Positions 21,366 to 24,224 of a stretch of DNA of 33,122 nt are shown one piece after another. Each line of letters begins with the position of its first letter. Positions within the stretch are counted from its first letter, which is position 1. Under the pieces are notes generated by a model. That model did not search any database. It had not been told where the DNA came from and saw only the letters and a program-made list of their open reading frames with translations. Made by a program: the position numbers and the translations under genes. This stretch comes from a virus, in the UHGV virus genome UHGV-0150051; one strand, written 5' to 3'.

Positions 21366-24224
21366 ATGAGCACGAAATTTAAAACCGTTATCACTACTGC
21401 CGGAGCCGCAAAGCTGGCAGCCGCCACTGTCCCCGGCGGGAAAAAAGTAACCCTGTCTGCAATGGCCGTGGGTGACGGTAATGGCAAATTACCGGTGCCG
21501 GATGCCGGTCAGACGAAACTGGTGCATGAGGTCTGGCGTCACGCTCTGAATAAAGTCAGCGTGGATAACAAGAATAAAAACTATATCGTGGCTGAACTGG
21601 TTGTACCGCCCGAAGTGGGCGGCTTCTGGATGCGTGAGCTTGGTCTGTATGACGATGCAGGAACACTGATTGCGGTCGCCAACATGGCAGAAAGCTATAA
21701 GCCTGAACTGGCTGAAGGCTCCGGACGTGCGCAGACCTGCCGCATGGTTATTATTGTCAGTAACGTGGCGTCTGTTGAGCTGAGTATTGATGCCAGCACG
21801 GTGATGGCGACGCAGGATTACGTCGACAAAGCCATATCCAGTCTTCATCGTACTGTCATTGATGATGTGGTTCTTCAGCATAAAGTTGTCCACGATATTG
21901 ACTACGCCGGGATTTTTGACGGCGCGGATAAGATGAGCCAGGGGTTCTGTATCTGTAATACGCCGCAGGGAACCAGAATGTTTCTGCATCAGCCTGTATC
22001 GGGTGGCGTAAGGATTGTTGAAACGACATTTAACCCTGACGGAGAAAACGAAAACCCGACGGTCATTTCGTTTTCTCCCGTTTTCGCTGATATTGGTCAC
22101 CAGAGTATCGGGGCCGTATGTGAAGACGGTCGCGTGATGCTGTATACCCCGACCGCTGACGGCAAGGGTGTGAATATCATCAACTGGAATGGGGCTGACA
22201 CCAGTCTGACAGATGTCACCCGTACGGAGATTTTCACCTCTGACTTTTTTACCGGGGATGAAATTATAACGGTGGCATTGTCAGCAGACGGAAGCCTGTT
22301 AATTGTTCAGTCAGGTGATGAGGCCGTCCATTTTCATTACAACAGGGATGATCGTCGCACAGTTTATGTTTTCGATCGCGCCTCTCTGACGTTTAAACAC
22401 CGGATTTATCTGTCCACCCAGCCAATGGTGTCGCAGGCATTTCAGGGGATGGCCAGCGATGGTCATTATCTGTTTGCTTATTACGGTTATACAGGCGTAT
22501 TTCTGACCCACCGCATTGTTGTATATAACCTGTCAACGGGGGAAGTTGTCAGACAGTTCAATGTGGATGGCGTTCGTGCCAGGTATGGTCGCCAGAAAAT
22601 GCTGGGGAATGCAGAGCTGGGGTATCCCGTTTTGCAGGAAGCCGAAGGGCTGGCTCTCCATAACGGAAAACTGTATCTGCTCGATATGGATTTCTGGTGT
22701 CAGACTGCCGATGTGGTTTCTTTTGAGGGGGCATACTTTGCTGCACGTGCAACAAATTTTTCTGGCCGTTCTCCGGTGAATCCATCTTACTGGACGCCTA
22801 CAGCATATGGAACGGCGGCTGCAACGAAATATGATGCCACGAAGTCTTATACATGTGGCGTGGCGACAAAACGCAGCAAAGCTGTGGTTTCCGTGGAGGC
22901 TTACGACGGCACAGGCTATCTGGTGGACTCCGGCGTGGCGTTTCCTGACAGCCATGCCAGCCTTTTTCTGAGTCCCAATGCTGTAAATATTGCCCTGTCA
23001 CCCAATGAAGACTTCCAGGTGGCAGCCTATGAGCAGAATCTGCGCTCGCATCGCCCGTTATTTGAGGTCAGAAAGGAGGCTCCGGATACAGACACTTCTG
23101 CTGCTGTTTTTCGTTTGTTCGGGGATGCGTTCCGAACCGGAGAATACACAGGCCGCTACGTTCAGTGGAAACACCGACTGAACGCCGTGCACGATTGTCT
23201 GGAAATACGCGCTGACGTGGATTTGTTGAGCGGTGGCGGGATTAACCTTTACTCAATGAACGATACTCAGTCGGCGGGACGCACAAGGCTTTATTGCACC
23301 GATGGCAGTGAAACCTGGTCTGTATTATTGAGTCCGGTCTCGCCGTCATTTCATCCCGACCAGGACAAGGCAATGAATCTGGGGTCATCGCCAAATCGCT
23401 GGAATGTGGCATACCTGCAGGGCGTGAATATTAAATCGGATGACGAAACCCAGAAGCGCATGGCCATCAGCACCACGCTGAAGGCGGGAGCTTTCCAGGT
23501 ATCAACAGCCGGGAATCTGGGTATTTATGACGATTCTGCTGACGCTTATGTAATTGCAGCCCGTAGTGACGGCACTGCATTCATGCAGATGGATACAGAT
23601 ATTAACGGTGCATTCCGGCCATCGGTTAACAATACCAGCGACCTGGGTGCGCCCAACAAAGCGTTCCGGAGCGTGTATCTCTGCAACTCGCCGACCGTTG
23701 TGTCGGATGCGACGTTAAAGGATACACCGCGCGATGCGACGGCAGCCGAAAACGCGGCATTTGCAGAAATAGCACGGCTTCCGGGCGTGTGGCGCTGGTT
23801 GCAGAGAATTGAGGAGGAGGGTGAGGACGCGCGTCTGCACGCCGGGCCGACAGTCCAGGCCGCGATAGCGGTGATGGAGAAACACGGTCTGGACTGGCGG
23901 AAATACAGCGCATTTTGTCTGGACTCGTGGGAAGCGGAGGAGGCACAGTACGAAGATATACCGGAAGAGTATGAAGATATTCCGGTTCAGCCAGCGATTT
24001 ATTCGGATGAAGGGGAGCTGTTGAGCGGGACAACTCGTGTGCTTACCCGACAGGCGGAAAGGGTTCTTGTTCGCCCTGCAACCGAAGCAGGAAGCCGTTA
24101 TCGCTTCCGGAAAGAGGAGCTTCTCTGGTGGTGTCTACGTGCTGTTGTCAGCCAGGTGGATTTGTTAATGGAACGCTTTGTTGACTTAAATCGTCGTTTG
24201 ATAAAGTTGGAGACTTCAGAATAA
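21366..24224 (+). CDS. H: Tail fibre H: P2-like N-terminus, divergent central region, C-terminal intramolecular-chaperone-like domain
   Basis: 952-aa ORF (P2 H about 669 aa). The first ~150 aa match P2 H from memory (MSTKFKTVITTAGAAKLAAATVPGG...). The last ~175 aa (from about nt 23643) have an SDxxLK motif (S780, nt 23703-23705), an LHAGP..QAA segment and a terminal coiled coil, like peptidase-S74-type chaperone domains. Confidence 0.88.
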   Translation: MSTKFKTVITTAGAAKLAAATVPGGKKVTLSAMAVGDGNGKLPVPDAGQTKLVHEVWRHALNKVSVDNKNKNYIVAELVVPPEVGGFWMRELGLYDDAGTLIAVANMAESYKPELAEGSGRAQTCRMVIIVSNVASVELSIDASTVMATQDYVDKAISSLHRTVIDDVVLQHKVVHDIDYAGIFDGADKMSQGFCICNTPQGTRMFLHQPVSGGVRIVETTFNPDGENENPTVISFSPVFADIGHQSIGAVCEDGRVMLYTPTADGKGVNIINWNGADTSLTDVTRTEIFTSDFFTGDEIITVALSADGSLLIVQSGDEAVHFHYNRDDRRTVYVFDRASLTFKHRIYLSTQPMVSQAFQGMASDGHYLFAYYGYTGVFLTHRIVVYNLSTGEVVRQFNVDGVRARYGRQKMLGNAELGYPVLQEAEGLALHNGKLYLLDMDFWCQTADVVSFEGAYFAARATNFSGRSPVNPSYWTPTAYGTAAATKYDATKSYTCGVATKRSKAVVSVEAYDGTGYLVDSGVAFPDSHASLFLSPNAVNIALSPNEDFQVAAYEQNLRSHRPLFEVRKEAPDTDTSAAVFRLFGDAFRTGEYTGRYVQWKHRLNAVHDCLEIRADVDLLSGGGINLYSMNDTQSAGRTRLYCTDGSETWSVLLSPVSPSFHPDQDKAMNLGSSPNRWNVAYLQGVNIKSDDETQKRMAISTTLKAGAFQVSTAGNLGIYDDSADAYVIAARSDGTAFMQMDTDINGAFRPSVNNTSDLGAPNKAFRSVYLCNSPTVVSDATLKDTPRDATAAENAAFAEIARLPGVWRWLQRIEEEGEDARLHAGPTVQAAIAVMEKHGLDWRKYSAFCLDSWEAEEAQYEDIPEEYEDIPVQPAIYSDEGELLSGTTRVLTRQAERVLVRPATEAGSRYRFRKEELLWWCLRAVVSQVDLLMERFVDLNRRLIKLETSE

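Follow-up and report, generated by a model that had tools for sequence, protein, structure and literature searches.

Intramolecular chaperones of phage fibres and spikes constitute a well-known domain family with a well-known mechanism, and the shuffling of receptor-binding modules between phages is equally well known. The GA-1 neck appendage protein (from a Bacillus phage), which is found in the literature on these chaperones, was one of the earliest in which a domain of this kind was demonstrated, and in the endosialidase of phage K1F the native nucleophile and its companion lysine are presumably Ser911 and Lys916. In the L-shaped fibre pb1 of phage T5, Ser1264 is the scissile nucleophile and is activated by Lys1269, Arg1250 from the neighbouring chain acts as a folding sensor, and Asp1239 and Thr1263 form the oxyanion environment (PMC4690869). 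In phage P2, the fibre protein gpH depends on a separate chaperone, gpG, acting in trans. Here we analysed a stretch of viral DNA of 33,122 nucleotides (UHGV virus genome UHGV-0150051, hereafter the window), which contains a P2-type E. coli prophage with a divergent gene H. Our analyses make it likely that this gene encodes a P2 adaptor joined to a portable self-chaperoning spike, which by analogy would use the standard intramolecular-chaperone pathway and render G unnecessary.

A preliminary description of the locus, drawn from the sequence alone, had placed an endosialidase-type chaperone domain at the end of H (interval 23643-24224, corresponding to residues 760-952), an assignment that our searches bore out. 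The Pfam family Peptidase_S74 (PF13884) matched residues 780-842, the first matched residue being S780 itself, and scored 38.1 bits on the full protein and 41.3 bits on the interval alone, the curated gathering cut-off being 22 bits. The motif SDATLK occupies residues 780-785, as the earlier numbering of S780 had it, and LHAGPTVQAA lies at residues 824-833. A phmmer search against all PDB sequences matched only fibres and spikes bearing a chaperone domain, over H residues 710-868: the T5 pb1 L-shaped fibre (4uw8, E 2e-15), the fibre of Klebsiella phage Kp7 (7y5s, E 3e-14), gp42 of Acinetobacter phage AS12 (6eu4, E 1.4e-12), a tail spike protein (9vvr, E 1.6e-12), the K1F endosialidase chaperone (3gw6, E 5e-6) and the phi29 gp12 chaperone (3gud, E 1e-5).

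The residues that operate the reaction in T5 are found at the corresponding positions of H, since S780, K785 and R768 align with Ser1264, Lys1269 and Arg1250 in the alignment to 4uw8. S780 faces the alanine of the mutants S1264A (4uw8) and S911A (3gw6) and a serine in 7y5s, 6eu4 and 9vvr, and the S780 and K785 positions are aligned in all five structures. The Ser/Lys pair is kept in 10 aligned chaperone-bearing relatives with a single Ser-to-Cys exception, a T7-type relative (P0046) that has cysteine in place of the nucleophile. In an AlphaFold2 model of residues 745-952 (predicted local distance difference test, pLDDT, 78-93) helices are followed by beta-hairpins and then by a terminal helix of 35 residues. 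When this domain-alone model was compared with the PDB using Foldseek, only the chaperone structures 4uw8, 3gw6 and 3gud were matched at E<=0.004, the next match having an E-value of 0.19. The terminal coiled-coil segment proposed earlier is predicted as one long helix (residues 916-950), and its coiling into a trimer may be expected from the homologous solved trimers. Against gp75, the homologous protein of the lytic N4-like Escherichia phage Pollock, synonymous sites of the chaperone are saturated and the proportion of nonsynonymous differences (pN) is 0.13-0.18, and the domain is therefore under purifying selection, as is the module as a whole.

At its other end, H is a P2 protein. The preliminary description had noted a likeness to P2 H over about 150 residues followed by complete divergence, and tblastn agrees closely with it, residues 1-158 having 82% amino acid identity to P2 gpH and no similarity to P2 H being detected past residue 158. 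The Pfam domain Phage_tail_fib (PF12571) covers residues 1-151 (E 1.3e-57), nucleotide homology to P2 (96%) ends at 21826, at about codon 154, and isolated Peduoviruses align with nucleotides 1-461 of H only, at 96-98.5% nucleotide identity. The left junction consequently lies at ~21826-21840, coinciding with the end of the Phage_tail_fib domain. By synteny with P2, H occupies the P2-type position in the V-W-J-I-H operon, and its residues 1-158 would, by analogy, plug into a P2 baseplate. The surrounding prophage is of P2 type and complete, from int (50-1063) through gene D (31909-33072), with the window ending just past D, beyond which P2 itself has only ogr and the attachment site. Its nucleotide identity to phage P2 is 94-98% except in two stretches, 5875-8600 and 21827-26642, the P2 structural and morphogenesis genes other than H and G are all of full P2 length, and the prophage looks intact.

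The right junction accounts for gene G. No G-like chaperone gene had been noticed after H, and none was found in the window by any of three approaches: a tblastn search with P2 gpG at E<=100 yielded nothing significant and only a 10-residue C-terminal relic, a profile built from three G sequences gave no match below E 7 among 724 six-frame segments of at least 25 amino acids, and a Pfam scan of the open reading frames (ORFs) of both non-P2 stretches found no assembly-protein family. The relic consists of NPEWPELPQ and the stop codon (26607-26636 in the tblastn match), and in a four-way DNA alignment 32 nucleotides (26608-26639) correspond to the last ~10 codons of G with its stop. The megablast alignments of the window with phages STYP1 and P37 pick up again at 26608-26616, where these phages have a gene annotated as 'tail fiber assembly protein'. 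Past the relic the native terminator of the V operon is followed by the FI promoter region, as in STYP1 and P37. Because the relic stands before this terminator, a segment of ~4.8 kb has taken the place of H codons ~155-669 together with G codons 1 to ~165, that is, of distal H and nearly all of G. The relic shows that G was deleted by the same replacement that swapped distal H, from about codon 154 of H to about 10 codons before the stop of G. The terminator is now stranded 2.4 kb downstream of H, and the scan revealed no terminator on the + strand between 24225 and 26643.

That the locus had exchanged its receptor-binding module, as previously suggested, is corroborated both by this replacement and by the occurrence of the module on at least five other chassis. 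Homologues of residues ~163-952 sit on several different N-termini: the P2-type N-terminus (window and E. coli B), another kind of P2-like chassis found in an ST131 prophage, the baseplates of Mu-like prophages, an HP1-like element, and the N4-like adaptor of Pollock gp75 (77% amino acid identity), with relatives of the module also found on T7-type (PF03906) and PF18668-type N-termini. The boundary motif xIDDxxLQHKVVHD is common to all these chassis. No G-like gene was found after the module in the neighbourhoods inspected, and in Pollock a terminator directly follows gp75. Two further relatives (P0048 and P0049) have the propeller and part of the stalk in common with H, and have different ends without the chaperone. 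The literature on the function of Pollock gp75 and on the T7-like phage vB_EcoP_R4596, whose tail fibre is also homologous to the module, gave no data on receptors or processing.

Sequence comparisons indicated that the module has itself been recombined. Between H and Pollock gp75 (L002) the stalk has a proportion of synonymous differences (pS) of 0.20 and a pN of 0.05, whereas synonymous sites are saturated in the propeller as well as in the chaperone. Since the stalk is closer to Pollock than the domains flanking it, recombination has also acted inside the module, which would imply that the stalk by itself was recently exchanged between one lineage of temperate myoviruses and another of lytic N4-like podoviruses. 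Likewise, the last 21 codons of H (24161-24224) differ between the P2-chassis alleles (window, E. coli B) and the ST131 and Mu-like alleles, which are otherwise 98% identical, and the right end of the common module therefore lies inside the terminal helix and not at the stop codon. The ratio of nonsynonymous to synonymous substitution rates (dN/dS) between the P2-chassis and ST131-chassis copies of H is ~0.1-0.3. Of 5,426 complete E. coli genomes, the distal module is present in 86 and the entire gene in 83, with H copies 98-100% identical to that of the window; these include the copy of E. coli B REL606, which lies in a defective P2 remnant. RefSeq and PHROGs already include the H protein, named there as a tail fibre or a tail spike; H gave a full-length match to PHROG 19921 ('tail spike protein'), and no NCBIfam family was matched. 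A literature search for a P2-like phage with an intramolecular-chaperone fibre, or for the fibre of the E. coli B prophage, found nothing specific.

Taken together with what is established for K1F endosialidase and T5 pb1, these data suggest how the spike would be made. The P2-type N-terminal domain (residues 1-158) would mount the protein on the P2 baseplate, and the distal module beyond it comprises a beta-propeller at ~165-520, a stalk expected to be trimeric at 521-779 and the chaperone at 780-952. Three chaperone domains would trimerise first and template the interdigitated stalk, and once the stalk was correctly folded, R768 of the neighbouring chain would complete the active site. K785 would then activate S780 for a self-cut predicted between V779 and S780, releasing the chaperone (780-952, predicted 19.9 kDa) and leaving a mature spike (1-779, predicted 84.7 kDa) on the virion. 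As folding help would thus be built into the protein, a trans-acting G would be dispensable.

Several observations weigh against this reading. The template modelling scores (TM-scores) of the domain model to solved chaperone domains are low (0.33-0.40), which we attribute to the modelling of a monomer of what would be an obligate trimer. The oxyanion residues of T5 are replaced in H, Asp1239 by Asn755 and Thr1263 by Val779, both positions varying in 6eu4 and 9vvr too. With chimeric R-pyocin fibres, particle assembly, too, is reported to have required the fibre chaperone of the cognate pyocin (PMC6116203), so that a G-type protein may do more than fold the tip. Finally, all P2-chassis copies are prophages, that of E. 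coli B being defective; no P2-like phage with this H allele occurs among 50,697 deposited phage genomes, and no record of P2-like size appeared among the matches listed for a tblastn search with the chaperone domain.

The distribution of the allele raises the possibility that the chimera is an evolutionary dead end, whose fibres fail to mount on P2 baseplates so that no infective particles are formed. Such a fate would be in keeping with the lack of an isolated P2-like phage carrying the allele in the phage collection or among those matches, with the deleted, defective prophage of E. coli B, and with an operon terminator 2.4 kb away behind antisense cargo. We consider it unlikely: the 952-codon frame is intact and conserved in those 83 genomes, the dN/dS between P2-chassis and ST131-chassis copies is low, the junction at the end of the N-terminal Pfam domain is the same module boundary that other chassis use, and the other P2 morphogenesis genes of the window are of full length.

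The two replaced oxyanion residues, together with the cysteine of the T7-type relative, speak for a chaperone that folds the trimer but stays uncleaved on the virion as a distal cap, as happens in some fibres. This outcome appears distinctly improbable given that the Ser/Lys dyad and the arginine sensor are conserved across relatives, and that the Val-Ser-Asp context of H recurs in 6eu4 and 9vvr, which were both deposited under the name of tail spike protein.

The pyocin result bears instead on a different idea, namely that the spike still needs a helper from outside the prophage, be it a chaperone of the host or the G or Tfa of a P2-like or lambdoid prophage in the same cell, and some host genomes do have a second H-like locus. 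We regard this as very improbable, because G-type proteins act on the distal tip, as is generally known for Tfa proteins, and it is this tip that has been replaced here; the same module works in the lytic Pollock with no assembly gene after it, it occurs on several unrelated chassis without a G-like neighbour, and in most of the E. coli genomes listed there is just one H-like locus. A replacement assembly factor encoded by the small downstream ORF (26312-26587) was rejected as scarcely credible, for although intact homologues of 94-95 amino acids start 2 nucleotides past the H stop on two other chassis, the product is strongly hydrophobic and was read by eye as a membrane protein, the window copy is frameshifted by an 11-nucleotide deletion and is separated from H by 2 kb, gp75 of Pollock is not followed by a copy, and the family also follows unrelated types of receptor-binding protein and stands alone in an Aeromonas chromosome.

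The chimeric H keeps the P2 baseplate-attachment domain and would present a different tip, the nature of which was examined through the predicted structure. In an AlphaFold2 model of residues 160-952, residues ~165-520 form an all-beta propeller (pLDDT mostly 80-92), whose top Foldseek matches in the PDB are the Staphylococcus phage 80alpha receptor-binding protein, the tail fibre of P68 and the receptor-binding protein of NF5 (E ~2e-11, TM-scores 0.26-0.40). The Pfam family Phage_RBD_prop (PF21311), which recognises the five-bladed platform of receptor-binding proteins of the staphylococcal-phage type, was matched weakly, with 11.6 bits (E 0.2) below a cut-off of 23.7. The propeller is probably a carbohydrate-binding platform. 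The last ~70 residues of the stalk, where the phmmer alignment to 4uw8 begins (H 710), are homologous to the tip of T5 pb1, and the monomer model of ~615-790 is unreliable (pLDDT <50), as is expected when an interdigitated trimer is modelled as a monomer. The module as a whole matched the GA-1 neck appendage protein in a Foldseek search of BFVD (E 6e-33), and among viral structures it also matched the tail fibre of the T7-like coliphage vB_EcoP_R4596 (48% identity). By analogy, the receptor has probably changed, to a surface glycan, and with it the host range would have changed as the preliminary description proposed. An endosialidase was considered and rejected, the Pfam family End_tail_spike being matched with only 14.9 bits (E 0.028, cut-off 25) over 26 residues, and the PDB search of H gave no sequence match to the catalytic part of an endosialidase.

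The coordinates of H, of its parts and of the neighbouring features are given in Table 1.

Table 1. Gene H, its domains and adjoining or associated features of the window, with the evidence for each.
Feature	Position	Strand	Evidence and remarks
Gene H, chimeric receptor-binding protein	21366-24224	+	Single ORF, 952 amino acids, 104.6 kDa
P2-type N-terminal baseplate-attachment domain, residues 1-158	21366-21839	+	Pfam Phage_tail_fib, identity to P2 H
Beta-propeller domain, ~residues 165-520	21858-22925	+	AlphaFold2 model, Foldseek
Stalk/distal shaft, residues 521-779	22926-23702	+	phmmer, model
Predicted autoproteolytic site, S780 (23703-23705) to K785 (23718-23720)	23703-23720	+	Alignment with solved homologues
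C-terminal intramolecular chaperone (Peptidase_S74), residues 780-952, 19.9 kDa	23703-24221	+	Pfam, PDB matches, Foldseek
Terminal helix 916-950 within the chaperone domain	24111-24215	+	Predicted
Relic of the G 3' end, right recombination junction	26608-26639	+	tblastn, megablast, four-way DNA alignment
V-operon rho-independent terminator	26644-26664	+	Terminator scan; collinear with STYP1/P37 between G and FI
Family-2 glycosyltransferase cargo	24434-25727	-	Pfam Glycos_transf_2, low GC
(GCCA)n repeat in the glycosyltransferase; (TGGC)n on the + strand	25556-25573	-	TRF
Small ORF for a probable membrane protein, frameshifted	26312-26587	+	70% nucleotide identity to L004 7366-7650
AAA_13 ATPase, 735 amino acids	6138-8345	-	PADLOC PDC-S06 match

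Between H and the relic of G lies a glycosyltransferase gene of ~35% GC (Pfam Glycos_transf_2, E 1.6e-28). A more specific name was sought for it and rejected, the similarity being to GT2 enzymes in general and the equivalog scores all far below their cut-offs. Its ATG is at 25727, and between the first 55 codons and the GT2 domain stands a (GCCA)n tract that encodes SQPA repeats; with n = 4 in the window, the N-terminal part is out of frame with the domain. Across 12 loci that are otherwise 97-100% identical, n takes the values 4, 7, 11, 13, 19, 21, 32, 34, 35, 45, 59 and 66. The three loci in which n is a multiple of 3 encode one fused protein of 453-513 amino acids, as annotated in RefSeq, while in eight others, the window included, the start gives only a stub of 67-132 amino acids; in DETEC-P881 (n = 32) the two parts are fused owing to a different left flank. 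Even among laboratory descendants of E. coli B the value of n varies (7, 21, 34, 35 and 45), and the sequences look like a case of slipped-strand phase variation of the glycosyltransferase. To our knowledge, contingency loci based on simple sequence repeats are rare in E. coli, and we found no description of this (GCCA)n tract in the literature. In complete E. coli genomes the cargo was found next to this H allele and nowhere else, and 29-30 of the 86 carriers of the module have it. Spike and glycosyltransferase might conceivably form a functional pair, in which the enzyme modifies the glycan seen by the propeller and the repeat switches it on and off, a tentative proposal that, if true, would amount to reversible receptor masking in lysogens.

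The small ORF next to the relic encodes a hydrophobic product of ~95 amino acids, and the window copy aligns to its homologue in L004 with an 11-nucleotide gap. Intact members of the family (L004 7366-7650 and L005 7346-7633) directly follow H in ST131 P2-like and Mu-like prophages, the family comprises 576 clusters or more, other members come after a lambda-J-like tip or a pectate-lyase spike, and no family was matched in Pfam, NCBIfam or PADLOC. It is probably a tail-module moron. In the other non-P2 stretch, an island of 30% GC at the old/tin position of P2 encodes an AAA_13 ATPase with a match to PDC-S06, a candidate defence family of PADLOC (E 4e-254), and weaker similarity to PrrC.

The locus is a clean but unsurprising case of phage module swapping, and what is known of intramolecular chaperones is unchanged by it. 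Its value lies in the preservation of both junctions of a tail-fibre swap, including the relic of the deleted assembly gene, which therefore provides a natural demonstration of a self-chaperoning spike on an adaptor of the P2/R-pyocin type. A baseplate adaptor of this type, of ~160 residues, could accept such a spike, and the trans chaperone would then be dispensable, the same design rule that is exploited in engineered tailocins and retargeted phages. As the allele is found in a widely used lineage (E. coli B) and in a clinical one (ST131), the receptor may matter for the host range of prophages, and it may also bear on the choice of receptor-binding modules in phage engineering. More novel than H itself is the frame-switching repeat of the adjoining glycosyltransferase, with its 4-66 copies.

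Compared with P2 gpH and gpG, the gene position, the operon and the first 158 residues are P2's own, whereas nothing is left of P2 H residues 159-669 and only the last ~10 codons of gpG survive, and the assembly logic has shifted from a chaperone in trans to one in cis that is predicted to cleave itself. Of the solved structures, T5 pb1 is the closest relative by sequence (E 2e-15, aligned over H 710-868), with the same order of elements (a helical part, beta-hairpins and a long terminal helix), the catalytic Ser, Lys and Arg aligned, and no need of a separate assembly gene; within the mature part, however, the relationship is confined to the last ~70 residues. The pb1 protein is a siphovirus fibre of 1,396 amino acids without a beta-propeller, unlike H, and its chaperone has 133 residues compared with 173 in H, which has an acidic insert at ~857-900. 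The K1F chaperone (3gw6) belongs to the same Pfam family, has its lysine five residues past the nucleophile position, shares an RxHxG...Q motif (ARLHAGPTVQ in H, ARIHFGVIAQ in K1F) and is a top Foldseek match at ~20% identity, but H has no GH58 sialidase domain such as that of the K1F endosialidase. The likeness to the neck appendage (gp12 type) of Bacillus phage GA-1 extends over the whole modelled module (~800 columns, TM-score ~0.42-0.45, in a comparison of two predicted structures), at 17% identity and in a podovirus appendage directed at a Gram-positive host. Pollock gp75 and the tail fibre of T7-like vB_EcoP_R4596 differ from H in their N-terminal adaptors and virion types, yet they are homologous to it over the whole distal module (77% and ~48% amino acid identity, respectively), have the same module boundary, and both end in the chaperone.

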